The notes below the pieces were generated by a model, which saw nothing but the letters and a program-made list of their open reading frames with translations, did no database searches and was not told the DNA's origin. A stretch of 64,000 nt of DNA, from contig OZ219790.1 of the NCBI GenBank assembly GCA_964291215.2, positions 2,048,001 to 2,112,000 of the forward strand, written 5' to 3'. This document shows, one piece after another, positions 1,322 through 53,975 of the stretch. The translations under genes and the position numbers were made by a program. Source of the DNA: Alphaproteobacteria bacterium. GTDB lineage: Bacteria > Pseudomonadota > Alphaproteobacteria > MPNO01 > UBA830. How positions within the stretch are numbered: position 1 is the first letter of the stretch; each line of letters starts with the position of its first letter.

Positions 1322-2829
1322 GTATCTACTCACCCCTAGTTGGGTTCTGATTGGTCGTAGTGCTCGTTGATGATGTCTGCGGCTTTTCCGTCGAGGGCGA
1401 TCTGGGTGGCGACGAGTGGGTTGTAGCCGAGTGCGGCCATGGAGGTGAGGTAGCTTGAGCCCCGGCACCATGCTTTTGCGTGGAGCGGAAGCATCCGGAC
1501 ACCTTGACCTTTGCCATCCTGATCTTCTGTTCTCCGGCATTGTTGGTGAAGCTGACGTCGGGGTTGTCTATGAAGCGCAGGTTTTCGTGTTTCACGAGAC
1601 GTTCGTGCAGGTTGTGCGCGTCGGACTTGCGTCCACGTTTTCCTTTCGGCGGGATGTCGGGCAGTTCCCTGGCGCCCTGATGGTGCGGTAGCGCTCGCGC
1701 CCGGCGTCGTTCAGGGTTTTGGATGCGCTCTTGTTGACCTTGTGGCAGGGAGCAGGCTCTTCATCAGTCGCGCGGTAGCCTCGACGACAAAGATCAGTTC
1801 GCGCAGCAGGTGGCTGCCGCACAACTGGTGGCTACACTGGCCCATGTACGAGGCCCAGGACGCCCTTGTAGCACGGGCCGATCTCTTGCCTCCCGGCCGC
1901 GCTTGCGGTGCGGGAACTTGCACGTCAGCGTCCCACGACATGAAGCCACTTACTGTTGATCCGAAATCGTCGACATCGGGCGTTGCAGGAGGTGCGCCAC
2001 GGCGGCCTCCTCCCATGACGCATCGTGAAAGCATAGCTGAGGCAGGTTGCCTCGGAGAGCTTGATGCCGGAGATCGCCTGCACGAACGCGACGGCGCAGG
2101 GACAGCATTTGGGCGACCAGCAGGTTGATAACGAGGGCCTGGATGCCGATGCCGTACTGCACGGGATGTTGTCGGGGAACCGGCCCCGGGCCTTGCACTT
2201 CGGGCATTCCTTGATCTCGGCGCGGCGCTCGACGACCTCGAACACGATGTCGTGCGGCGCTCCCGATCGACGGGGCCGTCGATGTCGGCGCCGCAGGCGT
2301 CGCAGGCCGCGACCGTCTCCTCGACGATGATCTTGCGCAGGTTGTCGCCCATCTGCCGGTTCGGCTTCGGGCCCTTGCCGTTGCTCCCGGCACGCTCTTG
2401 TCCGTCTGTGACGGCGGCAGACCGGAGTTCCGGCTCGTGCGTGGTCTTCTCCAGAAGGACGACGATGAAGATGTCGAGCAGGATGACGAGGACGCGGATG
2501 ACGGCCTCTTCCGCCACCTTGCCGGCAGCGCCGCGGTCTTGGCCGCTTCGAACTCCTCGCGCGCCGCCCGTCGCCATCACCCGGCCTTGCGCTTCATCAG
2601 CGCGCCGCTTCCGAGATGCGTTTCCACATACAGATCATGCGGGGGCTGGAGCCCCGGAAGCAGCTGGCACAGCCCGCTCGTCGCCTTCGATCCAAAGTAG
2701 CCCACTGGCGGTCCCCGTCGTTCTCGATTACCACCACTAAACGAATCGGCCTGCAGTGTCAAATCTCCACGAAAACCCGTTCGTTGCTCTACCCCGACAT
2801 CAAGCCGGAACCAGGGGGTGAGCAGTTAC
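1322..2829 (-). mobile_element. IS66-family element (single-transposase type), copy 1, eroded
   Basis: TIRs GTATCTACTCACCCC/GTAACTGCTCACCCC. 8-bp TSD CAACCGAC (1314-1321, 2830-2837). Fragments QLCGSHLLREL and FTNNAGEQKIRMAKVK. Confidence 0.9.
2577..2705 (-). CDS. Short leader ORF inside IS66 resembling the N-terminus of a Dam/D12-class adenine methyltransferase
   Basis: GTG-GYFGSKATSGLCQ...PPHDLYVETHLGSGALMKRK. Its stop overlaps the transposase start (TGATG). Also present at 12164-12292 and about 53720-53851. Confidence 0.6.
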   Translation of the reverse strand: MGYFGSKATSGLCQLLPGLQPPHDLYVETHLGSGALMKRKAG

Positions 2830-3020
2830 CAACCGACAGCAGCCAAAGCCAGAAAACCCGGCAGGGTTGGGCCTGTGAAACCTCCGGGCAGCAGAAGACA
2901 AGAAAATTGAATGCAGCGTGGGAAAGGCTTGGCTGGCACGCAAGCGCCGGTTGTTGCAAGCAGACCTTAATGACAAGATGGCCCGGACGGTCGGAAAAAG
3001 GAAACGATGGGCTGCATTTC

Positions 3021-4157
3021 ATGGAGCAGAGGCCGGTCCGCGACAACCCGCTCTACAACCAGAACCGGATGAAGATCGGTATCATCGCCATGAACTGCAG
3101 CCACGGGTCGACGATCACCACCGCCGACAATTCGTGGGAGATGACTTGGCCGGACACCCGCGAGGTCTCGGTGATGGCGGATCGCGCGGGTTTCGAGATC
3201 CTTCTGCCGGTTGCCCGGTGGCGCGGCTATGGCGGCGAGACGAACTTCAACAACCGCACCTTCGAGACCTACAACTGGGCCGCAGGCGTGGCTGCTGTCA
3301 CCGACTATTCCTGCATCTTCTCGACCTCGCACGTCCCGCTCACGCACCCGGTCGCCGCAGCCAAGCAGTGCGCGACGATCGACCATATCTCCGGCGGGCG
3401 CTTTGCGCTCAACGTCGTCTGTGGATGGTTTAAGAACGAATTCGAGATGTTTAACGCCGAATGGCGCGAGCACGATGTCCGTTACGAATACGCGACCGAA
3501 TGGCTCGACCTGGTACGGCGGATATGGACCGAGGAGAACGAGTTCGATTTCGAGGGCCGCTGGTTTACCTCGCGGAATATCTGGAGCCAGCCCAAGCCGA
3601 TCCAGAAACCCATGCCCCCCGTGATGAATGCCGGCGGCTCGCAGGCCGGCCAGAAATTCGCCGCCACGCAGGCGGACATGAACTTCGTCATTCTCAAGCA
3701 GCGGGACATCGAAGGTGGCCGGACGCAGATCCGCAAGCTGAAGGACATGGCGCGCGAGGCCGGCCGCGAGGTCCAGAGCTGGATTCACGTCTATGTCGTC
3801 TGCCGTGAGACCGAGAAGGAAGCCCGCGACTACCTCAATCATTATGTCGTGGAGCGTGGCGACTATGTCGCCGTGAACAACCTGCTCAAGATCTTCGGCA
3901 TGCAGTCGGAGACCCTGCCACCGGATGTCCTCGATGAATTCCGCTTCCACTTCATTGCCGGGCATGGCGGCTACCCGCTGGTCGGCACGGCGGAACAGAT
4001 CGTCGACGAGATCGACACGCTGGTCAGGATCGGCGTCGATGGGATCCTGATTTCCTGGGTCGACTACAAAACCGAATGCCGCCAGTGGATCGACGAGGTC
4101 ATGCCGCTGATGGAACAAGCCGGCCAGCGTCGGCCATTCGAAGCGACGGGCGGCTGA
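3021..4157 (+). CDS. LLM-class (luciferase-like) flavin-dependent monooxygenase
   Basis: Intact ORF with PVARWRGYGG, ATIDHISGGRFALNVVCGW and MNAGGS motifs. Confidence 0.92.
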   Translation: MEQRPVRDNPLYNQNRMKIGIIAMNCSHGSTITTADNSWEMTWPDTREVSVMADRAGFEILLPVARWRGYGGETNFNNRTFETYNWAAGVAAVTDYSCIFSTSHVPLTHPVAAAKQCATIDHISGGRFALNVVCGWFKNEFEMFNAEWREHDVRYEYATEWLDLVRRIWTEENEFDFEGRWFTSRNIWSQPKPIQKPMPPVMNAGGSQAGQKFAATQADMNFVILKQRDIEGGRTQIRKLKDMAREAGREVQSWIHVYVVCRETEKEARDYLNHYVVERGDYVAVNNLLKIFGMQSETLPPDVLDEFRFHFIAGHGGYPLVGTAEQIVDEIDTLVRIGVDGILISWVDYKTECRQWIDEVMPLMEQAGQRRPFEATGG

Positions 4158-5237: not shown

Positions 5238-5308
5238 GAGGTACTGTAACTTGATGTCTGGAAATTTGTCTGAGGTTTGCGCTTTGAGGCGTTTCACTGG
5301 GGGGCTAG

Positions 5309-8300
5309 CCCTGCCGTGTCATGACAAATCTGGTTGACAATGGTTTACGTGTTCACGCGTGTCTTTGTCCATCCCGGAACCCGATTTTGTGACCCGGTGC
5401 GGCGCTGGTGTGTCTGGCCACATGATCTGGTGACCCGGGCGTGCTGCGGTAGCCGCCGAGATGGGCGACCAGGTGCACCGCATCGGCGAGACGCTCCGGT
5501 TCCTTCAGGGCGTACTTGTGTGCGTAGTCGCGCGAGCTCGCTGTCGGTGAACATCAGCTGCGGCTCGCACCTGGCGGCAGGGTCATGATGCGCGATGACG
5601 GCGTTGATCGCCCGCTGCAGCCGGTGCGGAACAGAAGGTGTTCCACCCTGCATCCGGATTTGAGCACGTAATCCTCGATTCGCCAGCGCTGAAGGTAGAA
5701 GCCGACGATGTCGGCCGCCTCCTTCGCCAACCCGCACGGTGGTCAGCAGGCACCGGGATCCTCACCCTCGGGCGCTCCCTGACCCCGTGCAGGGACACCG
5801 GCTTCGCGCTGGGGGCGGTGCCCGTCACGGGTGACGGACCGCAACTCGCCAGGCGCTTCTGTCGCGCGGGCCTTCTTCCGGCTGGCTTGCTCCGTCAGTC
5901 CCTCGATCTCAATCAGGCCGCCGGCCATGACGGCGAACAGCCTTCCCTCCTTCAGCACCCTGTCATGCTTGGCGCGCAGATCGACGCGGGGCAAGCGCGT
6001 GTCGAACAGCTCGAAGATGTCGGCTTCCCGACGGAGATGACGCGCGTCTTGCCGCCGGGGTGGCAGCGCCTTGAACCCCTCGAGCTGCGGCGTGTCTCCT
6101 GCGACCGGGGCTTCACCGGACCCAGCACCCCGAGTGGCAGGTCAGTCACCGCCAGGGTCGCGTGCAGGCCCCGGTCTGGTTCTCACCTGCAGGCCGTCGC
6201 AGCCGGGACGCCGGGAGAAGTTCAGGTCCGTGCCGCAAGAACCGTCTTCTGGCCACGGATGCGCCGGATGCTGCCGGTGCGGCGCAAGAATGTTCGCCGG
6301 CGTGATCTCCGATTCGACGGGCGACCATCCGGTAAAACGCATTGATCGCGGTGTTGTCGGCGCTGGGAGACGCATTGATCTTCTGACCGGCCGCCAGAAG
6401 GCCGGCGCTCCAGGCGCGCAGAAAGTCGCTTGTCACCCCCCTCCAAACTCGTTCTGCGCCCAGTCGTTCAGACCTTCGCCCGGCGAGGGCGCATGATCGA
6501 CCTCCCCAGCTTCCTGCGCGCTCCAGTTCGGCCACGAAGACCGTCTTCACCGTCTCCCAGTGCTCCCGATCCTGCCGGCCTTCGGTCCTGCACAGGAAGT
6601 TGGCCGCGCGCAGGCAGGGTAACCTTCATCGGCAAAACTGAGCCATGGTCGAAACGGTCCTCGAAGTCACGCGGCGCAGGATGCGCACATCGCTGGGCGG
6701 GCAAAGCACCTGATCAAGAAACGGCTCAGACAGACGATCCGCTGCAGGTGGCCCCGGCGCTGCCCGTCGTTCCATCCAGCGGTCCCGCGCCGCGCTGCCG
6801 CGGCAAATCCCGCCGTGCCACCCGTGCGCCGAGCCCACGAGATATTGGCAGCCGGCGAAGGTCGTCGCGGGTGTTTACGCGCAATCAGCGTGACCGCCCG
6901 GTCAATACGATCCCCGACTACGATGATCTCGAGATCCCGAATGCGCGCGCCGGAACCTCTGCAGCGATACCAACAGGCGAGGCCGGCGGTTGATTGTCGG
7001 TGACTTCGGCGCCGGCAGGACGATCTCCGGGCGCCCAGCGCCCTCAGGCAGCCGGCAAGCTGCAGACGGCCGCGCGCGTCGACAAAGGCAAACTCCTCGC
7101 AGACGACCCAGAGCCGACCGGCTGTCGAACTGCTCACAGGACAGCAGCGACGCAATCCGCGCAACTGCTGCCTCGTCCCGCAATGTGCGGCTGATCTGTG
7201 ACATGGGACACTTATGCCACCCCCACTTCCAGTCTGAAGTGCAACACCCGGCCCTCATCGCAGTGAGGGCGTAGCCCGAACGGAGATGAGGGCCGGGTTG
7301 CGCAAATTTTTCCCCTCTGCCCCTCTCGATTCCGCCTGGGAACAGCTTCAGTTCCTTCAACATCGAGCTTATGCAACGCCTTTGTCGGCTTCAAGCCACT
7401 ATTTCGCCGTCGCGCGGCATGGACCCTGCTGCACGTTGCGGCTTTGGAACATGGCGCAGATAGTCAGGGCGGTTTCACTTCAAGATTACCTCCGTCGGCG
7501 ATCCCAGGACTTTCCGAGTGTTGAGCCGATCCTGTACCTTCTGAACATCTTCGTTGCATGTCGCGCGAAAGTCCGTGCCCTTCGGGAAGTACTCCCGCAC
7601 CAGGCCGTTGGTGTGCTCATTCAAGCCGCGCTCCCGGGAATGGAAAGGCGAAAAAAAATCTGCGTCAAGTGCGACACGCCTGTGGTCTGCGAACTCCTTG
7701 CCGTTGTGATTGTGTGGACCAATAGCGCACCAGAGCCGAGCAGGCGGATCATGACCGAACCGACCGTGTCTGCAGTCTTTCTGTCCACCCGTCCCAGCAA
7801 GGTGTATTTCGTGGCACGAGCGACACGACAGCTCCACTGTGAGCTTTGCCGATGATGGCTCCCAGTCGCCGATCCGTTCCTTTGCCTCCGCAGGGCGCTC
7901 GGAAATGTCCACTCGGCCAGGACCCGGCCGGAATGGCATCCGCCCTTCCAGTTCGGCTTCTTGCCGCGCCGCCGAAGCTTCTTCCACAGGACGCCCCCGG
8001 CTCTCCGATCTTCGGCGATCATAGATCCGTTGCCGACCCACGGCCCTCCAGTCGAAAACGGCCGCTGATCTGCTCGGGGCCCTCCCGCAGCTTTTTCTGA
8101 GCCTCAACCCGAGGCGTCAACCGCCAGGAAACAGACGAGGCGGCCCTGCGTTTCTGCCATCCTTTGCGCCTGTTTGTGACGGTAACCCCGTCCCCCGGTG
8201 TTGCGCTTGATCTCCCGGAAAATTGTTGATCGGCCCAGCTGCCGAGCAATCGCACCTTGTGAAAGACCGCTTTTCTGCCTCAATCTGGCATCGCTCTTCG

Positions 8301-8494
8301 TAGGTGACGGTAGCCTTTGGACATGAACAAGCTCCCTCCATCTTGTACAGGAACTCTCGCCGCTGCTGGACAGCTCCGCAACATCATGCGTCTAAAAACA
8401 CATGGCCACAGCCCATCATGTGTTGCACTTCACTATGGAACGGGGGCACGCTGAAACACCGTTGTCCAGCTAAAATTTCCGTGACATGCGAGGG
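5309..8494 (-). mobile_element. IS4-family (Tn5-like) element with DUF4338-like N-terminal domain, copy A, eroded
   Basis: CTAG TSD (5305-5308, 8495-8498). TIRs CCCTGCCGTGTCA/CCCTCGCATGTCA. Fragments LSRFLIR, WAQNEFGG and GTDLNF. Confidence 0.8.
7221..8446 (-). mobile_element. IS30-family element, copy 1, eroded
   Basis: TIR CCCC-N-TTCCA...TGAAGTGCAACA. TSD CAC, confirmed by the empty site at about 18450. ERGLNEHTNGLVREYFPKG motif. Confidence 0.88.
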
Positions 8495-8569: not shown

Positions 8570-9651
8570 ATGGACCTGCGACACACTACGACGATCGGGA
8601 CTGTTTTGGAACATCTGATCGCAAACGGAGCAACGGATCTGGGGCGGATCTTTGGTCAGCTCTTCGAGCTTGCGATGCAAATCGAGCGCGAGCAGCACTT
8701 GAAAGCGGGCCACCGGACGCCGGAGCGACAGGGCTATGCCAACGGCTACAAGCGGATCGACACCCCCACTGTTACCGTTCAGGTGCCAAAGACGGCCGGT
8801 CACGGGGACGACCCCCCAGTCGCTTGAACGCGGCCAGCGATCTTCTCGCGCCGTCATGCTGGCCGTAGCCGAGATGTACATCAAGGGTGTTTCCACGCGG
8901 CAAGCCGAAGATGTAATGCGCGAGTTCGGGAGCCTGTCCTCTTCTCAGGTCAGCCGGGCCACCAGGTTGCTCGATGAAGAACTCACCGCGCAACCGGCCC
9001 CTGATGAAATACTTGTCCTGGATGCGCGCTATGAAAAAGCCCGCCATGACGGCGTTGTGCGCGATGTCGCAGTACTCTCGGCCATCGGAATAGGGGCTGC
9101 AGGCACGTTCTGGGGCTCTCTGTGGCGCTCTCCGAGGCCGAGGTCCATTGGAGAGCCTTCCTGGAAAGCTTGCTAGCCCTGCATGGTACGACCTTCATCG
9201 TCTCGGATGACCATGCCGGGTTGAAAGCAGCACAACGCGCGGTGCTAGGCGCGGCGACATGGCAGCGCTGCCAATTCCACCTGGCGCAAAACGCCGTGCA
9301 CCGAACAACGACATCAGGAAACGTATTGGAAAACAGCTCGGAGCCATGCGTCCTCACTCCAAGCCGCCGAGGCTGAACTGGGCACCCTCGTGGCCAGCGA
9401 CAAGCATCCAGGCTTCCTGGCTGGAAAAGAATGCGGGGCTCGCTGTCTTCACCTTGCCCGATGCTCACCGCAAGCGCATGCGAACCTCGAACGGCATCGA
9501 GCGACCGATCCAGCAAAAACTCAAGCGGCGCACCTCCAAAGTCAGGGTCTTTCCGAACCTCGCCTCGTTGGAGCGCCTCTCAACCGCAGTCCTCATCGAC
9601 GAAAAATGGGAAACCGAAACCAAGATCAAATGGGAACAGCTCGATGACTGA
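8570..9651 (+). pseudogene. IS256 transposase, multiply frameshifted
   Basis: EMYIKGVSTR, LDARYEK, WQRCQFH and RTSNGIER motifs. Confidence 0.9.
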
Positions 9652-10871: not shown

Positions 10872-12416
10872 GTATCTACTCACCCCTAGTTGGGTTCTGA
10901 TTGGTCGTAGTGCTCGTTGATGATGTCTGCGGCTTTTCCGTCGAGGGCGATCTGGGTGGCGACGTGATGATTGTAGCCGAGTGCGGCCATGGAGGTGAGG
11001 TAGCTTGAGCCCCGGCACCATGCTTTTGCGTGGAGCATGGTGCGGAAGCATCCGGACACCTTGACCTTTGCCATCCTGATCTTCTGTTCTCCGGCATTGT
11101 TGGTTAAGCTGACATCGGGGTCGTCTGTGAAGCGCAGGACTGACTTTTCGTGTTTCACGAGACGTTCGTGCAGGTTGTGCGCGTCGGACTTGCGTCCACG
11201 TTTTCCTTTCGTCGGGATGTCGGGCAGTTCCTTGGCGCCCTGATGGTGCGGTAGCGCTTGTGCACGGCCCGGCGTCGTTCAGGGTCTTGGATGCGCTCTT
11301 GTTGATCTTGTGGCAGACCTCGCGGAGCAGGCTCTTCATCAGTCGCGCGGTAGCCTCGACGACAAAGGTCAGTTCGCGCAGCAGGTGGCTACCGCACAGC
11401 TGGTGGCTACACTGGCCCATGTACGAGGCCCAGGACGCCCTTGTAGCACGGGCCGATCTCTTGCCCGCGCTTGCGGTGCGGGAACTTGCACGTCAGGGTC
11501 CCACGACATGGAGCCACTTACTGTTGATCCGAAATCGTCGACATCGGGCGTTGCAGGAGGTGCGCCACGGCGGCCTCCTCCCATGACGCATCGTGAAAGC
11601 ATAGCTGAGGCAGGTTGCCTCGGAGAGCTTGATGCCGGAGATCGCCTGCACGAACGCGACGGCACGGCGCAGGGACAGCATTTGGGCGACCAGTAGGTTG
11701 ATGACGAGGGCCTGAATGCCGATGCCGTACTGCACGGGATGTTGTCGGGGAACCGGCCCTTGGTCCGGGCCTTGCACTTCGGGCATTCCTCGGCGCGGCG
11801 CTCGACGACCTCGAACACGATGTCGTGCGGCGCTCCCGATCGACGGGGCCGTCGATGTCGGCGTCGCAGGCATCGACCGCGACCGTCTCCTCGACGATGA
11901 TCTTGCGCAGGTTGTTGCCCATCTGCCGGTTCGGCTTCGGGCCCTTGCCGTTGCTCCCGGCACGCTCTCGTCCTTGTCCGTCTGTGACGGCGGCAGACCG
12001 GAGTTCCGGCTCGTGCGTGGTCTTCTCCAGAAGGACGACGATGAGGATGTCGAGCAGGATGACGAAGACGCGGATCACGGCCTCTTCCGCCACCTTGCCG
12101 GCAGCGCCGCGGTCTTGGCCGCTTCGAACTCCTCGCGCAGCGACGTTGCGTTGACCGTCGCCATCACCCGGCCTTGCGCTTCATCAACGCGCCGCCTCCG
12201 AGATGCGTTTCCACATACAGATCATGCGGGGGCTGGAGCCCCGGAAGCAGCTGGCACAGCCCGCTCGTCGCCTTCGATCCAAAGTAGCCCACTGGCGGTC
12301 CCCGTCGTTCTCGATTACCACCACTAAACGAATCGGCCTGCAGTGTCAAATCTCCACGAAAACCCGTTCGTTACTCTACCCCGACATCAAGCCGGAACCA
12401 GGGGGTGAGCAGTTAC
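10872..12416 (-). mobile_element. IS66-family element, copy 2, eroded
   Basis: Same TIRs as copy 1. TSD ACTAAAAG (10864-10871, 12417-12424). Confidence 0.9.
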
Positions 12417-12630: not shown

Positions 12631-14240
12631 AGGAGCTTGAAAGCCCTTCTCTGGAACGGCGTGGGCCGTGTGGTGACCGGGAAGGGTTCGGCGCCCGCAA
12701 GGCGGGGCGCCACGGTGTTGCGGGTCGCAAGATCGCCGATGAGGGTGCGGAAGCTGTGCCCCCTCCGGGCGTCCTTTTCGTGGCCGCCTTGGCCCGGGCG
12801 CTCGCCGAGACTTCTGCCGGCGCCACGACGGACGGCCGCCTTCGGCATCCTCGTCGTCGAACAGCATGGGCTTCAGTCGCATGTGCCATTCGATGTAGTA
12901 GGCGAGCATGCACAGGAAGACGCGGACTCGGGGCGGTGGTAGACGGGGCGCACCTTCAGGTCCTTGAGGCTGCGGAAGGCCCGTTCCACGGAGCTCAACC
13001 GCTTGTAGGTCTGCACCGTGCCGGGACCGTCGAGCTCGCTCTGCGGCAGGCGGATCACGTAGAGGAGCCTGGCCTCGGCGGCGATGGCAGCCGCATCGCG
13101 CCCATAGGTGAAGACCCCCTCGTCGTCGATGGACCACGTGAAATGCTTGGCCATCCTGCCGATGACCTTTCGCTCCCCGATCTTCCCGGCGCCCGGCGCT
13201 GGTCTCGCTGCGGCAATCGGTGCGAGCCTCGGTGGCCTCGAGCAGTTCCTGGCGCTTGCGAGCCCGATCCAGCAGGGGGTTGCGGCAGAGGCGCTCGCCG
13301 GGATACGCATCGCTGGTGATCTCCACCAAGTCCCTCTCGTCGAAGAGCGACATCTCGACATCGCCGGCCTCCACTAGGGAACGGATGCCCCTCAAGGCGC
13401 TGGCCCGCAGGCTTCACCTCCTCGCGGGCCTCGGTCAGCATCCCCCACCAGCACCACCTTCGCCAGGGAGAACCGCTCCTGCAGCGTGGTGATCTGCGAG
13501 GACAGCGTCGCCGGGTGTTGCCGGGGAAGACCTGCACCGACACCCGTCCCGGTCGCACAGAAGGCCGACTGCAGCTTGCCCTTCTTGCCATCCCGGGAAT
13601 GACCCCGTTGGGCCAAGGGGCATGCCCTCCCCTCCATCCACACGGAAGTCAGGAGCACCAGGCAGCCCTCTTCGAGGTGCCGCCAGGGGATCTTCTCCTG
13701 ACGTTCCAGGAGCCGTAGAGGGCATTCTCGTCCAACTCCGCATCTCACCCAAGGTGCTGACCGCTGTCGCCAGCCTCCTGGCCAGCTTCGAGGCGGGCTC
13801 AAGGATGCGTGCCACGATCATGGCGAGAACCTGATCGCGCTCGGGAGAAGGCTTCGGGTCGATCCGCCGGTCCAGTTTCTTCAGGGTTCCCAGCACCGCG
13901 GCGACATGGGGAAGAGAGCGGACGAGGCGTCGTCGAGACCTGCGGTTCCTCCCTTGAGCAGAATGCGCAATCCCTCGATGAGAGCGGGCTTGGAAAGGTT
14001 GGCGAGGGTGCGCTTCTTGACCGTTCCGGCTTCGCGGCAGGACTCGCGGAGCAGGATGGCGGGCGGGGACGAGCGGTTGGGGATGGATTCGATATACATG
14101 GCTATAGGCGGCAGATCCATGGACGTCAAGCATCCAACATAATATTACATGGGTACAATATGACGCACGAAAAATCAGATAAACCACGCTGCATCAATGA
14201 CTTGACGTGCATTTCAACCGGAATTTTCTGGAACTTCGGG
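12435..14240 (-). mobile_element. IS1634-family element, eroded
   Basis: TIR CCCGAAGTTCCAG with CTAG flanks (12431, 14241). MYIESIPNRSSPPAILLRES, VERAFRSLK and VFLCMLAYYIEWHM motifs. Confidence 0.82.
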
Positions 14241-14413
14241 CTAGCCTGCGCCCAATAGCAATCACGAGACGCCGAGTAGGCGGCGAAGTGGCGCACTTGG
14301 CAGTCGTAGCAAGCGGAGTTCCTCGTGCCGCCACCGGTCTGACGTCTGCGCGCGCCTCGCGCCGGCGCCACGGGCCCTCGATGCGCAAGAAGCCGCGTCC
14401 GCCGAGTTTTCCG

Positions 14414-16600: not shown

Positions 16601-17440
16601 TCAATCTGACACCATTGAGTTCATTGATTTCTGCATATCGAGTTTCCGCATCGCTCGGTGATATTCGTTGAAATTGAGGAGGATCTTGTAACCCTGCCAG
16701 AGTTTCTCGGTTCCCGGCAGGGGTTGGCGTTTGCCGGGGATGAAGCCTGCCACGCGTGCGACCTCGATGGCGAAGACTTTGATGGTCGGTTCAGGATCGG
16801 GAGGTCCACGCGGTTGGTGTCGTCTGACGGGCTTGTGGATGTTCAGGACCGTGATCTCGTCGCGGTGGACGATGTAGCTGGCCGGCGTGCGAGACGCTCG
16901 ACAGTCATGACGCGGCATGCGGTGATGGCGTCGAAGGCCGGACACTTCCTCAGGTCGTCGGCCTGGCCGGTCCTCGATCCGTGTGCCGACCTTCAGGGCC
17001 TTGAAGTATTCTTCAATCAGCCATCGCCTTTCGTGGAAGGAGATGGTGTCGAGGGCAGCGGTGACGTCGCCTTCGGTGGTGAGCAGCATCCAGTCGAGGG
17101 GATCTGCCGGTGGGCCGGGTTCCGTGATGTGTACGGCCATCATGGAGAGCGGCGGCGTTCCCCGGGGCTTCCGGTCCGGTGGCGCAAGGTCGACCCTTGC
17201 CGTGCGGCCTTCGAGGCCCTTGCGCTCCTTGCGGCGGCGCGGCCCTCCGCAGGCTGCGATGTCGATCGGCCTGGTCGCGATGCACGGCTCATCGGCCATG
17301 TGGTCCCGAAGGTCCCGTTGCGCGCCCGTTGCGGTGACCACGCGGCGGCATGTCGAGCGCCTGACGCGCACCAGCAGACCAGCTCCGGGCCAGCAGGTCC
17401 CGGATGTCGCCTTCACGGATCACCAGCACCCTTGTCGAGG
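16601..17440 (-). pseudogene. IS4-family (Tn5-like) transposase, 3' part
   Basis: WMLLTT, RWLIEEYFKALKVG and GKRQPLPGTEKLWQG motifs. Confidence 0.82.
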
Positions 17441-18329
17441 GAGATTACGCAACCTGATGTCTGGAAATTGTCGTGAATCTGATCGAGCTGTTCCCATTTG
17501 ATGTATGCCTTGGTTTCGGTTTCCCATTTTTCGTCGATGAGGACTGCGGTTGAGAGGCGCTCCAACGAGGCGAGGTTCGGAAAGACCCTGACTTTGGAGG
17601 TGCGCCGCTTGAGCTCTTGCCGGATCGGTCGCTCGATACCGTTCAAGGTTCGCATACGTTTGCGGTGAGCATCGGGCAAGGTGAAGACAGCGAGCCCCGC
17701 ATTCTTTTCCAGCCAGGAAGCCTGGATGCTTGTCGCGATAGCTGGCCACGAGGGCGCCCAGTTCAGCCTCGGCGGTTTGGAGTGAGGAGGCGTGGCTCCG
17801 AGCTGTTTTCCGATACGTTTCCTGATGTCGTTGTTCGGTGCGTGCTGCACGGCGTTTTGTGCCAAGTGGAACTGGCAGCGCTGCCACGTCGCCGCGCCCA
17901 GCACCGCGCGTCGTGCCGCTTTCAGCCCGGCATGGTCATCCGAGACGATGAAGGTCGTACCATGCAGGGCTAGCAAGCTTTCCAGGAAGGCTCTCCAATG
18001 GACCTCGGCCTCGGAGAGCGCCACAGAGAGCCCCGGAACGTGCCTGCAGCCCCTATTCCGATGGCCGAGAGCATTGCAACATCGCGCACAACGCCGTCAT
18101 GGCGGGCTTTTTCATAGCGCGCATCCAGGATCAGGTATTTCATCAGGGGCGGGTTGCGCGGCGAGTTCTTCATCGAGCAACCTGGTGGCCCGGCTGACCT
18201 GAGAAGAGGACAGGCTCCCGAACTCGCGCATTACATCCTGCCGCGTGGAAACACCCTTGATGTACATCTCGGCTACGGCGCGAGAAGATCGCTGGCCGCG
18301 TTCAAGCGACTGGGGATAGAAAAAAAACG
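17441..18329 (-). pseudogene. IS256 copy 2, 5' truncated
   Basis: Near-identical to 8815-9691, with the right TIR at about 17441. Confidence 0.88.
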
Positions 18330-20417
18330 GGGATACTGTAACTTGATGTCTGGAAATTTGTCTGAGGTTTGCGCTTTGAGGCGTTTTACTGGGGGAGGGG
18401 GGGCTAGCCCTCGCATGTCACGGAAATTTTAGCTGGACAACGGTGTTTCAGCGTGGCATAAGTGTCCCATGTCACAGATCAGCCGCACATTGCGGGACGA
18501 GGCAGCAGTTGCGCGGATTGCGTCGCTGCTGTCCTGTGAGCAGTTCGACAGCCGGTCGGCTCTGGGTCGTCTGCGAGGAGTTTGCCTTTGTCGACGCGCG
18601 CGGCCGTCTGCAGCTTGCCGGCTGCCTGAGGGCGCTGGGCGCCCGGAGATCGTCCTGCCGGCGCCGAAGTCACCGACAATCGACCGCCGGCCTCGCCTGT
18701 TGGTATCGCTGCAGAAGTTCCGGCGCGCGCATTCGGGATCATCGTGGTCGGGGATCGTATTGACCGGGCGGTCACGCTGATTGCGCGTGAACACCCGCGA
18801 CGACCTTCGCCGGCTGCCAATATCTTGTGGGCTCGGCGCACGGGTGGCGCGGCGGGGTTTGCCGCGGCTGCGCAGCGCGGGACCGCTGGATGGAACGACG
18901 GGCAGCGCCGGGGCCACCTGCAGCTGATCGTCTGTCTGAGCCGTTTCTTGATCAGGTGCTTTGCCCGCCCAGCGATGTGCGCATCCTGCGCCGCGTGACT
19001 TCGAGGACCGTTTCGACCATGGCTCAGTTTTGCCGATGAAGGTTACCCTGCCTGCGCGCGGCCAACTTCCTGTGCAGGACCGAAGGCCGGCAGGACCGGG
19101 AGACGGTGAAGACGGTCTTCGTGGCCGAACTGGAGCGCTCGTGGCGCAGGAAGCTGGGGAGGTCGATCATGCGCCCTCGCCGGGAGAGGGTCTGAACGAC
19201 TGGGCGCAGAACGAGTTTGGAGGGGGGTGACAAGCGACTTTCTGCGCGCCTGGAGCGCCGGCCTTCTGGCGACCGGTCAGAAGATCAATGCGTCTCCCAG
19301 CGCCGACAACACCGCGATCAATGCGTTTTACCGGATGGTCGCCCTCGGAGATCACGCCGGCGAACATTCTTGCGCCGCACCGGCAGCATCCGTGGCCAGA
19401 AGACGGTTCTTGCCGGACGGCACGGACCTGAACTTCTCCCGGCCTGCAGGTGAGAACCAGACCGGGGCCTCAAGCCTGCATGCGACCCTGGCGGTGACTG
19501 ACCTGCCACTCGGGGTGCTGGGTCCGGTGAAGCCCCGGTCGCAGGAGACACGCCGCAGCTCGAGGGGTTCAAGGCGCTGCCACCCCGGCGGCAAGACGCG
19601 CGTCATCTCCGTCGAGAAGCCGACATCTTCGAGCTGTTCGACACGCGCTTGCCCCGCGTCGATCTGCGCGCCAAGCATGACAGGGTGCTGAAGGAGGGAA
19701 GGCTGTTCGCCGTCATGGCCGGCGGCCTGATTGAGATCGAGGGACTGACGAAGCAAGCCAGCCGGAAGAAGGCCCGCGCGACAGAAGCGCCTGGCGAGTT
19801 GCGGTCCGTCACCCGTGACGGGCACCGCCCCCAGCGCGAAGCCGGTGTCCCTGCACGGGGTCAGGGAGCGCCCGAAGGTGAGGATCCCGTGGTGCCTGCT
19901 GACCACCGTGCGGGTCGGCGAAGGAGGCGGCCGACATCGTCGGCTTCTACCTTCAGCGCTGGCGAATCGAGGATTACGTGCTCAAATCCGGATGCAGGGT
20001 GGAACACCTTCTGTTCCGCACCGCCTGCAGCGGGCGATCAACGCCGTCATCGCGCATCATGACCCGGCCGCCAGGTGCGAGCCGCAGCTGATGTTCACCG
20101 ACAGCGAACTCGCGCGACTACGCACACAAGTACGCCCTGAAGGAACCGGAGCGTCTCGCCGATGCGGTGCACCTGGTCGCCCATCTCGGCGGCTACCGCA
20201 GCACGCCCGGGTCACCAGATCATGTGGCCAGACACACCAGTGCCGCACTGGGTCACCAAATCGGCCGGGAAATCGGGTTCCGGGATGGACAAAGACACGC
20301 GTGAACACGTAAACCATTGTCAACCAGATTTGTCATGACACGGCAGGGCTAGCCCCCCAGTGAAACGCCTCAAAGCGCAAACCTCAGACAAATTTCCAGA
20401 CATCAAGTTACAGTACC
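18330..20417. mobile_element. Composite of two inverted IS256 left ends enclosing an IS4/DUF4338 element
   Basis: 18330-18403 and 20353-20417 are inverted copies of the IS256 left end and hairpin arm. Confidence 0.75.
18408..20348 (+). mobile_element. IS4/DUF4338 element, copy B, eroded, without IS30
   Basis: CTAG at 18404 and 20349. Inverted near-copy of 5309-8494. Confidence 0.85.
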
Positions 20418-22389: not shown

Positions 22390-22425
22390 CCCGCCCTTCC
22401 CCGGACACGGAGAACGGCCGCGTCC

Positions 22426-23415: not shown

Positions 23416-23504
23416 GCTTGCTCCATTACTGTCCCACCGCCGGCGCCTTCGCCAGACAGGTGGCCGTTTTCCATGAGGAGGCCGGGTACGGGACGCTCTG
23501 CGTT

Positions 23505-24275: not shown

Positions 24276-24419
24276 CGTGTTGTCACGGTGCCGGCAACCA
24301 GGTGGCAACGCCCGGGACCGGCGATCCGTACAGAGAACCCCAGTCTAGCGTGGCATGCACGGCGTTCAAGGCCGCGCATGCGGGCGGGTACGCGCCGCCC
24401 GCATGCCTCGCGACCTTCG

Positions 24420-29590: not shown

Positions 29591-29649
29591 TGCTTCCCGA
29601 CATTGCCAAAGACTACACTGCCCCGGCGCGGCGCCAGTGGTTGGACGCG

Positions 29650-39199: not shown

Positions 39200-41373
39200 C
39201 CCTGCCGTGTAGACATAAATCTACCAAGCAATGGTTTTGGCGATGCCCGCCGCGCCTACCATGTTGGCGGGATTTTGGGCACGGTCTGGCTGTTGTCGCC
39301 GGCTTGAGCAGCCAGCGCGGGTGCAGCGGCTCGGGTAGCAAAAGACCCACTGGACAACTCCGGCGCGAAGAGTCGCGGCATGGCACAGTCACAGATCCAG
39401 TCCACGCGCGGCGGAGCCCCGGATTGCCGCGATTCTGGCGCGGGAGCGGTTTGGCAGCCGCCACGCGCCGCCGTCTGTGCGAGGATTCAGGGACCGGCGG
39501 GGCCGTTTGCAGCTTGCCGGTTGTCTGAAGGCTTTGCGGGCTCTGGAGGCGCGCTCGGAAGTGATTGTCCTTCCACCGCCGCGGCGGTGCGGCCGTCGCT
39601 TCTGGGGACGCCGATAGCGCCTGCGGAGGGAGTTCCGGACCGGCTTTCGGAGGTTTGAGATTGCGGCGGTGGACACGCGCGCCGGCCGCCGGGTGTGGAA
39701 CACGCTGATGGCATACGAGCATCCGCGTGACGACGTTTGCCGGCTGCGCTATCTCGTTGGCTCCGAGCATGGTCTTTTGGGCGCCGCGGGGTTTTCTGCC
39801 GCTGCGGTTGTCGGCGCGCGACCGGGGGTGGGACGAAGCGCAGCGGCGGGACAATCTTGACCGGGTTCTGAGCCGTTTCCTGATCCGGCCGGGTGTTGCC
39901 AACCTTGCCAGCCATGTGCTGGGGCGTGTTCTGCGGCGGGGGACTTCGAGGCGCGTTACGGTTTTCAGCCGTGGCTTGTCGAGACGTTTCTCGAGGATCA
40001 GGGGGCGTGCCTGCGTGCGGCGAACTTCTTGGCGCGACGGCGGGGCGCGGCCGTCAGGATCGCGAGAACCGCGGCCGGTGAATTCATGTACGCGGCGGCG
40101 TCTGGGGGTTCCGGAGGCGGCGCTCGATCCGGGCGAGGGGCTTGGCGTGTGGGCGGTGAACGAGTTTGGAGGTGCGCAGTTGGGCGACAAGCGGTTGACG
40201 GCTGGTCAAGAGTGCGACGCTGGCGTATCCAGGGCGCGCGCAATGTCGAGAGCGACGAGGCTGCGGTGAACGGTTTCTACCGACTGATCGAGCATCCTGC
40301 GGACGTGACGGTCGAGAACATCCTCGCGCCGCGAGCGCACGGGCATGCGCGGACAGTCGACGGTGCTCGCGATGGCACCGATCTGAACTTCACGCGTCGT
40401 CCGTACACCGATGGCCTGCAGATCATCGGCAAGAACCAAACCGGCGCCCTGGGATTGCACCTGACGCTTGCGGTGAACGGGCTGCCGCGTGCTGCGCCTC
40501 GGTCACCGCACGTGCAAGACCCGGCGCTTGAGGACACGCTCCGGGCGACGCGCGCGCTGACGCGGGTGATCGCGGTGTGCGAGGCCGACTGTCTGTTCGA
40601 TGCCCAGCGCCGGGGGTCGAACTGCTGGTGCGGACGACCGCTGCCTGGCCGGCGAACGGAAGCTGTTCGCGACCGTCAGCCCCGCCGCGAGCCGGGTCGA
40701 GCGCCTCGGCGAGCGCAGGAAGTCGAGCAAGGTCAAGCCGCGCGCGCAAAGCGAGTTGCGCTTTTGCAAGGCCACCCTGCCGGCCACTGTCAAGAAGCCG
40801 GTCTCGGCCGTCCACCTCATCGAGCGCAACCCGCCCGGCAACGAGGACCCGATCCAGTGGTTCCTGCTCGCCACCGTCGACCACGCCGCAACCGCCGCCG
40901 AGATGATCGGATATTACCTCCAAAGGCGTCGAGGACTTCTTCAGAGTCCTCAAGTCCGGCTGCCGAACCGAGTTCCTCATGTTCCGCACCGCCTGCAACG
41001 CGCCATCACCATCAACGCCGTCATCGCCTGGCGCATCATGGTCATGACCCTGCGGCAGGTCCCCGAGTGCGAGCCCGAACTGCTGTTCACCGATCACGAA
41101 CTCAGCTTCCTGCGTCACTACGCCCTCAACAGCCGGCTCGATGCTCCCGACACGCTCGGGAACGCCGTCCGCCTCGTCGCCCATCTCGGCGGATACCGCG
41201 GGCGAACGCCCGACCCCGGAAACCAGATCATGTGGCAGGGCTACGGAACCCTCACGAAAGCCACCATCGGCCACAGAATCGGACACCAATTCGGCTTCGA
41301 GGACGGCAAGCGATACATGCTCGAACAGGTGCAAAAACATGTTGGGTAGCAAACTTGTGGCTACACGGCAGCC
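39200..41373 (+). mobile_element. IS4/DUF4338 element (related family), eroded
   Basis: CTAG TSD (39196, 41374). TIR CTGCCGTGTAG. LSRFLIRP, WAVNEFGGAQLGDKRL, DGTDLNF and LGGYRG motifs. Confidence 0.82.
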
Positions 41374-41604
41374 CTAGCCTGCCCCCGCTGGATATGGACT
41401 TGCTCCTGCGGAACTACCAGTCTGGTATCGCCCTCGCATACGCTGCACCATGACAGCTACCGGTCCGGTAGCTGTCCGAAGGCCGCGTTCGCCCGCGACT
41501 TCGGTCCGTCACACCGAACGACCGGGGGCGGCGCGGCTCCGGGGATCTGAAAGAACCGGAACCGGAACTCTTCCGAATCCATACGCAAGAACGGACAAAA
41601 CCGC

Positions 41605-44242: not shown

Positions 44243-44313
44243 CAGGCGGCAAATGGACTCATCCGACAGGATTGTCATGGCGGCGGGGCGGTTGTTATGA
44301 TTCGCTTCCGGGC

Positions 44314-45981
44314 ATGCCGGACGGATCGGACATCGACGCTCTGAAGGCGGCGCTGGCTGCGGCGGAAGTCAAGGCGACTGATGCCGAGGCGAAGGCGACC
44401 GAGGCCGAGGAGCGGGCCGCAGTTGCGGAGGCCGAGGCTTCCAACGCCGTGGCGAAGGTGTCGGACGCGGAGGCGCAGATCGCCTCCCTGAAGCTGATGA
44501 TCGAGAAGCTCCGTCACGCGCTCTTCGGCCAGCGATCGGAGCGCAAGCAGCGCCTTCTCGACCAGATGGAGCTCCAGCTCGATGAGCTTGAGGCGAGCGC
44601 CACCGAGGACGAGTTGGCGGCCGAACAGGCGGCTACCGGCACGACGCAGGTCAAGGCGTTCACCCGCCGCCGCCGGTCCGGGCGCAAGCCGTTCCCCGAA
44701 CACCTTCCCCGCGAACGGGTGGTTGTACCCCCACCGGCCGCCTGTGAGTGCTGCGGCTCGCAGAAGCTCTCGAAGATCGGCGAGGACATCACCGAGACGC
44801 TGGAGGTCATTCCGCGCCAGTGGAAGGTGATCCAGACGGTGCGCGAGAAGTTCACCTGCCGGGACTGCGAGAAGATCAGCCAGCCGCCGGCGCCGTTCCA
44901 CCCGACGCCGCGCGGCTGGGCGGGCCCCAACCTGTTGGCGATGATCCTGTTCGAGAAGTATGGGACGCACCAGCCTCTGAACCGCCAGCGCGACCGCTAT
45001 GCGCGCGAGGGCGTCGATCTCAGCCTGTCGACCCTGGCCGACCAGGTGGGCGCCTGCACCGTGGCGCTACGCCCGCTGCACGACCTGATCGCATCGCATG
45101 TGCTGGCGGCCGAGCGTCTGCATGGCGACGACACGCCGGTGCCGGTTCTGGCCAGGGGCAAGACCGACACCGGGCGGGCCTGGGTCTATGTCCGCGACGA
45201 CAGACCGTTCGGCGGTCCGGACCCGCCGGCGGCCCTGTTCCACTACTCGCGGAACCGCTCGGGCGATCACCCGCTCGAGCATTTGCGGAGCTACGCCGGC
45301 ATCCTGCAGGCCGACGCCTTTGCCGGATATAACCGGCTCTACGAGCCCGCCCGATCGCCGGGGCCCGTGACCGAAGCTGCCTGCTTCGCCCATGCGAGGC
45401 GCAAGTTCTACGAGCTCGCCGACATCGCGGCCGGCAAGAGGCGCGGCAGGAACGCGCCGCCGATCTCGCCGCTGGCGATGGAAGCCGTGAAGCGGATCGA
45501 TGCGCTGTTTGACATCGAGCGCGGGATCAACGGCGAGACCGCCGAGCGCCGCCTCGCGGTGCGCCGCGAGCAGAGCGCACCGCTCCTCGCCGACCTCGAG
45601 GACTGGATGCGCACCGAGCGTGCCGGGCTGTCGCGCCATTCCCCCGTGGCCAGGGCCATGGACTATATGCTGAAGCGCTGGGACGGCTTCGCCCGCTTCC
45701 TCGATGACGGACGTATCTGCCTGTCAAACAACGCCGCGGAGCGCGCAATCAGGCCGCTGGCCCTGGGCAGACGCTCCTGGCTGTTCGCCGGCTCCGACCG
45801 CGGCGGCTTGCGCGCGGCCGCCATGTACACCCTGATCGGCACCGCCAAGCTCAACGATGTCGATCCCCAGGCCTGGCTCGCCGACGTGCTCGCCCGCATC
45901 GCCGGGACGCCGCAGAGCCGCCTCCACGAACTCCTGCCATGGAAATGGCAGGAACAACGCCGGCACGATCAGGCCGCATAG
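44314..45981 (+). CDS. tnpC: IS66 transposase TnpC
   Basis: FGQRSER, HGDDTPV, CFAHARRKF and NNAAERAIR motifs; intact. Confidence 0.95.
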   Translation: MPDGSDIDALKAALAAAEVKATDAEAKATEAEERAAVAEAEASNAVAKVSDAEAQIASLKLMIEKLRHALFGQRSERKQRLLDQMELQLDELEASATEDELAAEQAATGTTQVKAFTRRRRSGRKPFPEHLPRERVVVPPPAACECCGSQKLSKIGEDITETLEVIPRQWKVIQTVREKFTCRDCEKISQPPAPFHPTPRGWAGPNLLAMILFEKYGTHQPLNRQRDRYAREGVDLSLSTLADQVGACTVALRPLHDLIASHVLAAERLHGDDTPVPVLARGKTDTGRAWVYVRDDRPFGGPDPPAALFHYSRNRSGDHPLEHLRSYAGILQADAFAGYNRLYEPARSPGPVTEAACFAHARRKFYELADIAAGKRRGRNAPPISPLAMEAVKRIDALFDIERGINGETAERRLAVRREQSAPLLADLEDWMRTERAGLSRHSPVARAMDYMLKRWDGFARFLDDGRICLSNNAAERAIRPLALGRRSWLFAGSDRGGLRAAAMYTLIGTAKLNDVDPQAWLADVLARIAGTPQSRLHELLPWKWQEQRRHDQAA

Positions 45982-51780: not shown

Positions 51781-52422
51781 TCCAAAGAAAGCGTTGCAGG
51801 CTATGAAACGACATTGTTGCCGAAATTGCCACTTCCTTGCTAAGCTCGACTTTGTGCATTACGCTGCGAAGCAGAGGGCGTACTGCATACGCATCATCTT
51901 GTTGGGCGGAATTATGTTTGGTTCCCGGTTTGGCGGGGAGCGCGATAAATTGTTTCCAAGCCAGAGTTGGCATCGTATGGCCGCGATTGCGTCGGAGAAT
52001 GTGACGCTGGTTTTCTGGTACCAGGCGGCGGCGTAGGACAGGTGGTTTGTCAAGAGCACGTCTGTGGCCCAGAGGCAGACGAGGCTGTAGAGCCCGCAGA
52101 GGACGGGGGTGGTTCGTGCGATCGCCGCGTGTGACTACTGGCGTTGTGTTTCGAGCCCGAGATGGGCGCGCAGTTCCTGGAAGGTGACCTCGACCTGCCA
52201 GCGCCGCACGAAGGTGGCGATGATCTTGGCCGGCTCCATGTTGGTGTCGGTGCAGAAGAACGCCTGCGGGTCTCGCTCGCCTTCCGGGTCTCGCACCAGC
52301 ACCTATCGGATGGCCTTGGGAGGTGTGCCGGGACGATACCAGAGCGCGGTATCGGAGATGATCTGGAGTGTCTTTTCCTTCGAACTTCCGTACCAGCGCG
52401 GAAGCGTGATGCTTGTCCAGCG

Positions 52423-53975
52423 GTATCTACTCACCCCTTGTTGGGTTCTGATTCATAGTGCTCGTTGATGATGTCTGCGGCTTTTCCGTCGAGGGCGATC
52501 TGGGTGGCGACGAGTGGGTTGTAGCCGAGTGCGGCCATGGAGGTGAGGTAGCTTGAGCTCCGGCACCATGCTTTTGCGTGGAGCGGAAGCATCCGGACAC
52601 CTTGACCTTTGCCATCCTGATCTTCTGTTCTCCGGCATTGTTGGTGAAGCTGACGTTGGGGTCGTCTGTGAAGCGCAGGTTTTCGTGTTTCACGAGACGT
52701 TCGTGCAGGTTGTGCGCGTCGGACTTGCGTCCACGTTTTCCTTTCGTCGGGATATCGGGCAGTTCCCTGGCGCCCTGATGGTGCGGTAGCGCTTGCGCAC
52801 GGCCCGGCGTCGTTCAGGGTTTTGGATGCGCTCTTGTTGACCTTGTGGCAGACCTCGCGGAGCAGGCTCTTCATCAGTCGCGCGGTAGCCTCGACGACAA
52901 AGGTCAGTTCGCGCAGCAGGTGGCTGCCGCACAGCTGGTGGCTACACTGGTCATAGCCCATGTACGAGGCCCAGGACGCCCTTGTAGCACGGGATGATGC
53001 CGATCTCTTGCCTCCCGGCCGCGCTTGCGGTGCGGGAACTTGCACGTCAGGGTCCCACGACATGGAGCCACTTGCTGTTGATCCGAAAGCCGGTCTCATC
53101 GACATTGGGCGTTGCAGGAGGTGCGCCACGGCGGCCTCCTCCCATGACGCATCGTGAAAGCATAGCCGAGGCCTCGGAGAGCTTGATGCCGGAGATCGCC
53201 TGCACGAACGCGACGGCACGGCGCAGGGACAGCATTTGGGCAACCAGCAGGTTGATGACGAGGGCCTGGATGCCGATGCCGTACTGCACGGTATGTTGTC
53301 GGGGAACCGGCCCTTGGTCCGGGCCTTGCACTTCGGGCATTCCTCGGCGTCGACGCGGCGCTCGACGACCTCGAACACGATGTCGTGCGGCGCTCCCGAT
53401 CGACGGGGTCGACGCCGCAGGCGTCGCAGGCCGCGACCGTTTCCTCGACGATGGTCTTGCGCAGGTTGTCGCCCATCTGCCGGTTCGGCTTCGGGCCCTT
53501 GCCGTTGCTTCCGGCACGCTCTCGTCCTTGTCCGTCTGTGACGGCGGCAGACCGGAGTTCCGGCTCGTTTTGCGCGTAGTCTTCTCCAGAAGGACGACGA
53601 TGAGGATGTCGAGCAGGATGACGAAGACGCGGATCACGGCCTCTTCCGCCACCTTGCCGGCAGCGCCGCGATCCGGGTCTTGGCCGCTTCGAACTCCTCG
53701 CGCGCCGCGTTGACCGTCGCCATCACCCGGCCTTGCGCTTCATCAGCGCGCCGCCTCCGAGATGCGTTTCCACATACAGATCATGCGGAGGCTGGAGCCC
53801 CGGAAGCAGCTGGCACAGCCCGCTCGTCGCCTTCGATCCAAAGTAGCCCACTGGCGGTCCCCGTCGTTCTCAATGACCACCACTAAGCGAATCGGCATGC
53901 AGTGTCAAATCTCCACGAAAACCCGTTCGTTACTCTACCCCGACATCAAGCCGGAACCAGGGGGTGAGCAGTTAC
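52423..53975 (-). mobile_element. IS66-family element, copy 3, eroded
   Basis: Same TIRs as copies 1 and 2. TSD GTCCAGCG (52415-52422, 53976-53983). Confidence 0.9.

Follow-up and report, generated by a model that had tools for sequence, protein, structure and literature searches.

This analysis concerns a window of 64,000 nucleotides from a bacterial genome (G000:C1:2048001-2112000) and, within it, a set of insertion sequence (IS) copies, above all three of the IS66 family, whose transposases have been broken by numerous small deletions. The deletions are concentrated at 5-7 bp, they are combined from copy to copy in a non-tree-like manner, and they are found genome-wide, with at least one other lineage also affected. 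We consider it rather probable that they reflect a lineage-specific, size-locked source of deletions working together with gene conversion that favours the shorter allele. The genome of the window, G000, comprises 6.15 Mb in two contigs, is 99% complete with a GC content of 64%, and is made up to 28.5% of repeats with at least three copies. Kin of one window protein carry the label Alphaproteobacteria, and the one examined sequencing run with a habitat label is a sponge metagenome, in which a host gene is 96% identical. Four relatives, G001-G004, were compared, of which G001 is the sister of G000 in the tree at about 93% nucleotide identity. The self-comparison of G000 was run by tiles, 2,000 of the 6,155 being unmasked and the remainder having repeat families masked.

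The three IS66-family copies all lie on the minus strand, at 1322..2829 (copy 1, with a dead transposase and the target-site duplication (TSD) CAACCGAC), 10872..12416 (copy 2, TSD ACTAAAAG) and 52423..53975 (copy 3, TSD GTCCAGCG). Each has terminal inverted repeats (TIRs) and a perfect 8-bp TSD and, measured against the family reference, they carry 34, 24 and 24 deletions alongside 19, 26 and 24 single-nucleotide polymorphisms (SNPs), respectively. Their C-terminal fragments match the Pfam domain DDE_Tnp_IS66 weakly, below the cut-off. The initial annotation had described these copies with their TIRs and TSDs and had quoted three indels in them, all of which the TSDs and the alignment confirm. 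Copy 2 retains a 7-bp segment, ATGGTGC, at about 11037 that is missing from 98 of 112 family copies, and copy 3 retains at about 52951 the TCATAG segment that is lost in 71 of 112 and, as an 8-bp variant, in a further 22. Thirteen deletions are common to all three copies, eight to copies 1 and 2, and five to copies 1 and 3. The pairing of copies 2 and 3 depends on the TGATCT site, where copy 3 has lost 6 bp and copy 2 has a 12-bp loss that includes the site.

The genome holds 113 full-length copies of this family, 79 of which have intact TIRs and a perfect TSD. The counts that follow come from 112 copies aligned to a union reference, with one chimeric copy left out of most counts and one copy of 1,926 bp set aside ahead of the alignment. 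Together they have 206 distinct deletions that are carried 3,542 times, and 2,808 of these carriages (79%) are of 5-7 bp. The average copy bears 31.6 deletions against 22-26 SNPs, each of the 112 has at least four frameshifting deletions, and identical breakpoints are found in up to 110 of them, at about 45 exact deletion sites within 1.8 kb. The family also has 323 private SNPs, which are mostly C>T. No intact close homologue was found in plasmids and the nearest intact transposase in the genome is 32-37% identical, and hence deletions that are fixed throughout the family cannot be counted.

The size preference extends well beyond IS66. Among all families of at least five copies, the numbers of distinct deletions of 1 to 9 bp are 263, 103, 105, 51, 257, 565, 312, 97 and 77, and the 5-7-bp peak is seen again in most repeat families. 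For bacterial pseudogenes, in comparison, the accessible portion of PMC6054270 describes deletion sizes that follow a power law. The long alleles are taken as ancestral because a tandem duplication is possible at just 33 of 843 recurrent sites. The deletions are not a polishing artefact: contigs from three independent runs hold both the long and the short alleles, and 8 of the 12 run indels listed, from a total of 216, are of 5-7 nt. These run contigs are collapsed, and the phase copy by copy is that of the assembly.

Sequence has been exchanged among homologous IS copies. Within the IS66 family the four-gamete test fails for 1,026 of 1,160 pairs of deletions and for 2,440 of 4,466 pairs of SNPs, with a mean r2 of about 0.02, which bears out the earlier observation of non-tree-like sharing, and in the large families r2 drops within tens of bases. 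Deletion-SNP pairs only 1-4 bp apart have an r2 of 0.30 with 43% showing all four gametes, as against 0.58 and 9% for SNP-SNP pairs. Moreover, three pairs of copies that have the same insertion flanks are internally no more alike than random pairs. The exchange among paralogs is probably non-reciprocal, since the TSDs have been preserved, and mosaic copies generated by non-reciprocal exchange are a feature of deletion-biased nonallelic gene conversion that is found here.

It is likely that the deletions are passed between copies with an advantage for the shorter allele. In families of at least 20 copies, a frequency of 50% or more is reached by 154 of 412 deletions of 5-7 bp in comparison to 11 of 127 deletions of 1-4 bp (p=6e-11) and to about 5% of SNPs (roughly 150, a figure estimated from the C>T excess). 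At the other end of the spectrum the singletons number 73 deletions and 1646 SNPs. The ratio of 5-7-bp deletions at 50-80% frequency to those at 20-50% is 85:71 by our own calculation, which is closer to the value of 1 expected under strong drive than to the neutral 0.5. The preferential passing on of the short allele is indicated indirectly by these frequencies and by a deficit near breaks in homology. Up to 150 bp from a unique break, hotspot deletions occur at 0.78 of the family expectation (bootstrap 0.71-0.85) as compared to 0.96 at far sites, whereas the SNP control gives 0.97 near and 1.05 far; the test used 135 interrupted or truncated pieces, comprising 27 true interruptions and 108 truncations, and deletions are less frequent where a break lies at a distance of 80-150 bp. 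Similarly, the terminal 100 bp or so of full-length elements lack deletions whilst SNPs are present.

The load also rises with the number of copies. In dead families the 5-7-bp load climbs through successive copy classes from 2.0 to 4.5, 8.2, 10.1 and 11.8 per copy-kb, whereas deletions of 1, 2 and 4 bp stay at 0.9-1.8 per copy-kb, SNPs lie at 15-25 per copy-kb in all classes and the C>T share of singletons is 0.42-0.57. Pairwise counts at 2-5% divergence increase with copy number from 3.0 to 23.6 per 100 SNPs. The number of distinct 5-7-bp events per distinct SNP is 0.07-0.13 in every copy class. Dependence on homology among paralogs is consequently visible in the effects of breaks, element ends and copy number, and is weak in the 27 true interruptions. 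Of the three causes offered in the initial annotation, namely recurrent deletion at microhomologies, gene conversion spreading lesions among copies and mixing of repeats in the assembly consensus, it is gene conversion that is best supported, being homology-dependent and directional with a load that goes up with copy number.

The same size class is found in DNA that has no other copy. A comparison of 366 intact single-copy genes (398 kb) with their counterparts in G001 revealed 6 bp lacking 22 times in G000 and once in G001, with a 3-bp control of 11 against 9. In 163 further single-copy genes (an independent 175 kb) the figures are 15 against 0 for 6 bp and 3 against 4 for 3 bp, giving pooled values of 37 against 1 and 14 against 13 (Fisher p=1.3e-5). 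Single-copy non-coding DNA (30 kb) has 31 losses of 5-7 bp in G000 and 9 in G001, which corresponds to about 1 per kb in comparison to about 14 per kb in the IS66 copies. Single-copy coding DNA contains 25 events of 6 bp and 10 of 5 and 7 bp together, an excess such as selection would leave. If the onset of the process roughly coincided with the IS expansion, the supply would be close to one tenth of the SNP rate throughout the genome. Within the window itself, the single-copy host block at 21351..30556 (no strand assigned), which is syntenic with G001, is without 5, 10, 7, 5 and 12 bp at about 21713, 21770, 28353, 29824 and 29912, and no segment of at least 3 bp is missing on the G001 side. 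The single-copy pseudogene tests, made against distant relatives and against G001, gave mostly mis-called frames.

Among the more distant relatives, G002 proteins lack two amino acids in 34 places against 2 in G000 per 33,000 aligned residues, whereas losses of one amino acid number 10 against 8. The corresponding two-residue losses are 28 against 6 for G004 and 10 against 9 for G003. The gaps in G002 were polarised as deletions on its own branch by three-way and multi-genome alignments of up to seven, and repeats in this genome peak at 5-6 bp (40/68/8). A small sample of G003 repeats, 3.4 kb in which 54 SNPs occur, is free of 5-7-bp indels. The losses in G000 when compared with G002, G004 and G003 (2, 6 and 9) are close to what its terminal branch alone would predict, and the long stem shared by G000 and G001 would add almost none. 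The process would therefore appear to be episodic, acting on the terminal branch of G000, in G002 and probably in G004, and not in G001, G003 or the G000+G001 stem. As separate observations, conserved single-copy core proteins of G002 and G004 (L039-L078) are enriched, in a lineage-specific way, in deletions of two and in part of four amino acids, and G002 also contains a tandem array with a unit of about 1.64 kb and many 5-6-bp indels (L048:11507-18021).

In the mechanism that we propose, a size-locked source removing 5-7, and up to 8, bases would act on single-copy and repeated DNA alike at about a tenth of the point-mutation rate, matching the pattern seen; it would need little microhomology and have a weak sequence preference, and selection in working genes would purge nearly all of its products bar the in-frame 6-bp ones. 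The IS copies, whose exchange is observed, would then swap short patches such that SNPs and deletions are reassorted nearly independently of each other. Where a long allele pairs with a short one, the loop of 5-7 nt would likely be removed more often than filled in, frequently without the neighbouring SNPs, a bias that is strongly supported. Some 100-150 bp of unbroken homology would be needed for this step, and because of this element ends and copies near a break would lag behind. The outcome would be that seen for the one IS66 family, where every copy has been disabled by frameshifts and the TIRs and TSDs survive.

One nick-and-religate activity with a 5-8-nt ruler could account for both steps. 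A more ambitious version, which is possible but on balance doubtful, has a switchable or horizontally mobile enzyme with such a ruler that excises short pieces from one strand and reseals it, producing low-rate deletions everywhere and clipping loops on paired repeats to the benefit of the shorter allele, so as to constitute a self-amplifying deletion drive. The data do not establish an evolved defence as opposed to a by-product. A size-limited deletion generated by cutting and religating has a counterpart in the Top1-type signature, in which deletions of 2-5 bp result from a nick plus religation across the gap. The present case differs from it in that no type IB topoisomerase was found in G000-G004, the size is other and tandem repeats are rare (33/843).

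Gene conversion among dead IS copies was reportedly described in Wolbachia by Cordaux in 2009. The part of PMC3205602 that is available likewise portrays a symbiont whose genome is crowded with nonfunctional IS copies and in which these copies exchange sequence, although decay there is by substitutions and deletions over time and that part reports no size lock or directional spread. The closest likeness may be to deletion-biased nonallelic gene conversion, for which the accessible sections of PMC3280953 describe paralogs that exchange sequence, a shorter allele that wins (by about 3.4:1) and neutral paralogs that shrink cooperatively. That system is eukaryotic, with no 5-7-bp window reported in those sections and, in primates, a bias that grows with length. 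The process in G000 would work in a similar manner in a bacterium, with the addition of a size lock and of an increased supply, across the genome, of deletions in that size class.

Several points weigh against this interpretation. The foremost is a group II intron (with an RVT_1 match below the cut-off) that exists in two copies, at L182:160-2070 (G000:C1 ~94860-96760) and in L183, both nested among multicopy elements. One copy has 31 deletions that are absent from the other, 23 of them of 5-8 bp, for 35-42 SNPs, and partners present today cannot supply these deletions. In run X2 the intron reaches a depth of 3,600-5,000 against about 51 for a single-copy gene, depth not being copy number, and 11 of the 12 indels listed there (of 64) are 5-8-nt segments that are missing from the better-preserved copy too; runs X1 and X3 contain an internally deleted form with about 1.1 kb skipped. 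This suggests that the intron family is or was multicopy, through past or population-level copies. The two-copy intron remains the main loose end. In addition, the break test gives 0.81 near and 0.86 far for the 27 true interruptions, the near-far contrast being carried by the 108 truncations. A deletion that every copy of a small family carries goes unseen, and low-copy loads are therefore underestimated and the copy-number trend partly inflated. Deletion load has no correlation with private SNPs per copy (rho 0.10, p 0.32), the same-flank copy pairs could be independent insertions at one site, and the phase of each copy is that given by the assembly. As to the relatives, one set of multi-genome alignment regions was picked for having gaps, and the G004 repeats are without a clear 5-7 peak in the three pairs examined. 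Finally, no enzyme has been found and the repair set is standard and intact.

The initial annotation had also suggested a deletion-based analogue of fungal repeat-induced point mutation (RIP). RIP is homology-dependent, brings a cumulative loss of transposon coding capacity in any element family and introduces new C-to-T changes only in duplications. In fungi it involves the RID/DIM-2 cytosine methyltransferase, which acts before meiosis; the present organism is a bacterium. The destruction of transposons in G000 is similarly homology-dependent, cumulative and independent of element family, and a defence of this type, in which the pairing of repeats would trigger new 5-7-bp deletions through a dedicated system with single-copy losses as collateral, would sit well with the rise in load with copy number, the reliance on flanking homology, the loss of every IS66 transposase, the higher density in IS66 copies than in single-copy non-coding DNA and the heavily affected two-copy intron. 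Nonetheless it appears improbable. The lesion is a 5-7-bp deletion rather than a C-to-T change, and unique DNA is clearly affected, with the same size class fixed in single-copy host genes (37 against 1) and present in non-coding DNA (31 against 9), which counters the idea of a process restricted to repeats. Distinct events per SNP are nearly flat over copy classes, and breakpoints identical in up to 110 of 112 copies point to copying and not to fresh cuts. Furthermore, RecA is intact, repeats still account for 28.5% of the genome and no candidate gene was found.

Unbiased gene conversion together with the transposition of damaged master copies, on a background of ordinary deletion bias, is a less likely explanation again. 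It agrees with the shuffling of SNPs as well as deletions, and the intact TIRs and TSDs of 79 of the 113 copies mean that dead copies could be mobilised in trans. The microhomology is also like that of ordinary bacterial deletions: in the portion of PMC6054270 at hand, deletions in pseudogenes outnumber insertions, 43% lie between microhomologies of 2-11 nt and the power law has a 3n excess, whilst here 44% have at least 2 nt. However, in G000 it is 5, 6 and 7 bp that peak and 3, 4 and 9 bp that do not, with alleles common to up to 110 copies, and neither the peak nor the 6-bp excess in host genes is explained. Unbiased conversion predicts one frequency spectrum for all variants, yet the ratio of deletions to SNPs passes from 73:1646 among singletons to 154:~150 (the latter estimated) at frequencies of at least 50%, and it predicts no deficit near breaks; the spectrum and the break test thus already contradict it.

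Slightly less probable still is independent, recurrent deletion at hotspots defined by sequence and without any copying, whether by microhomology slippage or at a motif targeted by a nuclease or a transposase. Microhomology is above the random level, with 0 bp at 33% of sites against 51%, a motif with an RTC start or GAY end is found at 217 of 807 sites where about 129 are expected, and deletions occur on several close SNP backgrounds. The motif is, though, weak, non-palindromic and unrelated to allele frequency (0.46 against 0.44), and it cannot single out some 45 exact sites in 1.8 kb; neither the lower frequency near a break nor the dependence of load on copy number is in keeping with hotspots. 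The same motif properties led to the rejection of transposase-target and homing-type models. An EM (expectation-maximisation) motif model outperformed shuffled sequences (log-likelihood of 371 against 120-176) but largely mirrors codon periodicity. Recurrence at microhomologies as the main cause, proposed earlier, is not supported either: microhomology is 0-1 bp at 454 of the 807 recurrent 5-7-bp sites (56%), and the 44% with at least 2 bp resembles the 46% among 8-11-bp deletions. With most sites at 0-1 bp and no excess over other sizes, microhomology slippage and alternative end joining were discarded as main causes. An artefact of assembly or polishing, in which repeat copies are mixed or short segments dropped, and to which the collapsed run contigs and the unconfirmed phase give some room, is very improbable as the source of the deletions, given both alleles in three runs, the same peak in the separate G002 assembly, a peak in unique DNA that favours in-frame events, the private and mostly C>T SNPs, and the effects of ends and breaks.

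As for the enzymology, the suggestion that the genome might have lost mismatch repair or gained end joining was not upheld. From their sequences MutS and MutL are full-length, with the MutL endonuclease motif intact, and the MutS/MutL alignments gave no telling convergent change; a mismatch-repair-deficient mutator was rejected on these grounds, and 1-4-bp deletions are not the enriched class. Mutagenesis by non-homologous end joining (Ku/LigD) was likewise rejected, Ku (PF02735) and ATP-dependent ligase (PF01068) being found in none of the five genomes. RecA, RuvABC, RecG, RecJ, XseA, PolA, UvrA/C/D, RecQ, RNase HI/HII and an AddA-like helicase are intact in G000. Searches with 31 E. coli repair queries, a set that left out uvrB, radA, recF/O/R, vsr and others, gave no match for sbcC, sbcD, recC, recX and rayT, the others yielding open reading frames (ORFs). 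A search of G000 for GIY-YIG proteins returned UvrC only, and there was no match to NucS (PF01939), TopIB (PF01028), Piwi/Argonaute (PF02171) or RecT (PF03837), where divergent homologues could escape. A loop limit of about 4 nt for MutS is contradicted by the range of 1-6 nt stated in the available text of PMC3167615, and the part of PMC8235422 at hand gives no threshold; a MutS-blind window as the lower bound on size was set aside as unproven.

Gene content offers one contrast. From G001, 798 ORFs were sampled (about a fifth of that genome), of which 125 are missing from G000, and dprA is the only DNA-uptake or repair gene among the 100 of these that were scanned. The gene is present in G001-G004 (in G001 at L161:14684-15718) and missing from G000 alone, which weakens import by transformation and speaks for a genuine increase in supply. 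Several additional radC-like and ssb genes lie at G000:C1 ~818-827 kb and ~463 kb and at C2 ~25 kb and ~412 kb, which suggests repeated integrative elements.

Other mobile elements of the window are at different stages of decay. Two copies of a 14-copy family (family 23) at 5242..7220 (plus strand, with an IS256-type left end; 20 SNPs) and 18431..20415 (minus strand; 26 SNPs) have 15 deletions of 5-7 bp each. The initial annotation was right about these deletions; the one DUF4338/DruA match in the window, at about 31984-32184, lies outside the heavily deleted copies. From a motif the element is putatively IS4-like, and the TSD noted for it in the initial annotation is likewise putative. The first copy is split by an IS30-like element (7221..8446, plus strand, TSD CAC) and resumes at 8447-8501; a second IS30-like copy is at 30607..31803 (minus strand, TSD ATT), and the two have 6 and 9 deletions of 5-7 bp, respectively, in their family-11 part. 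Their 3-bp TSDs stand as reported earlier, whilst the TIRs are imperfect rather than intact and the IS30 label has no Pfam confirmation. Two broken IS256 copies had also been noted: copy A (8612..9620, plus strand), from a 78-copy family, has 8 deletions of 5-7 bp. Fragments of it and of the partial copy B (17440..18330, minus strand) match Transposase_mut. Elsewhere, the same-order genome G036 has at least 35 near-identical IS256 copies, almost all intact, and is a possible negative or young control. Two unlabelled repeats, family 56 (16 copies; 12878..14243, minus strand) and family 41 (24 copies; 20442..21348, plus strand), have 28 and 14 deletions, of which 22 and 9 are of 5-7 bp. A young four-copy element (family 61; 39203..41379, minus strand) is at an early stage, with 3 SNPs and 2 deletions of 6 and 11 bp, and two intact IS66 transposase ORFs of a different family (44272..45981, plus strand; 54675..56294, minus strand) provide contrast cases.

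Some of these elements are stacked. The region 5242-9690 is a nest of an IS256-type end, the family-23 element and the IS30-like element, and a second arrangement at 18334-20415 is bounded on either side by this IS256-type end, the two being inverted relative to each other. A 99-nt tandem pair at 12431-12633, 104 bases apart and 90% alike, adjoins IS66 copy 2 and probably represents stacked element ends. Three genes or gene fragments for tyrosine integrases come a few kb or less after a tRNA at 29514-29587 (region 29514-38780), suggestive of stacked island insertions. An MmeI-type restriction-modification gene is in two frames at 48786-51780 (ORFs of 768 and 300 amino acids), near an N6/N4 methylase at 47162-48100, and the region is partly duplicated at C2 ~3.230-3.233 Mb. 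The gene pair at 61425-63412, encoding an AAA_21 ATPase and a DUF4276 protein, is possibly a defence or toxin-antitoxin module.

What causes the bacterial deletional bias at the molecular level, and why IS families become extinct once a burst is over, are questions of long standing. Searches of the open-access literature gave no report of a bacterial deletion process locked to 5-7 bp. The present case provides a sharp, countable deletion signature, present in some lineages and absent from a 93%-identical sister, and the cause should hence be findable by comparison of gene content and testable with loop substrates of defined size. The excess of two-amino-acid deletions might be used to screen other taxa for the process at the level of proteins. 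The favoured combination of a size-locked source and short-allele-biased conversion would show that two-residue deletions can become fixed in core proteins of bacteria through biased conversion of indels and that an active IS master can be killed by its own dead copies, and it would cripple whole transposon families. Were the deletion drive to be true, it would extinguish transposon families in proportion to how many copies they have, and in three lineages of one genus it would have shortened core proteins in steps of two amino acids.

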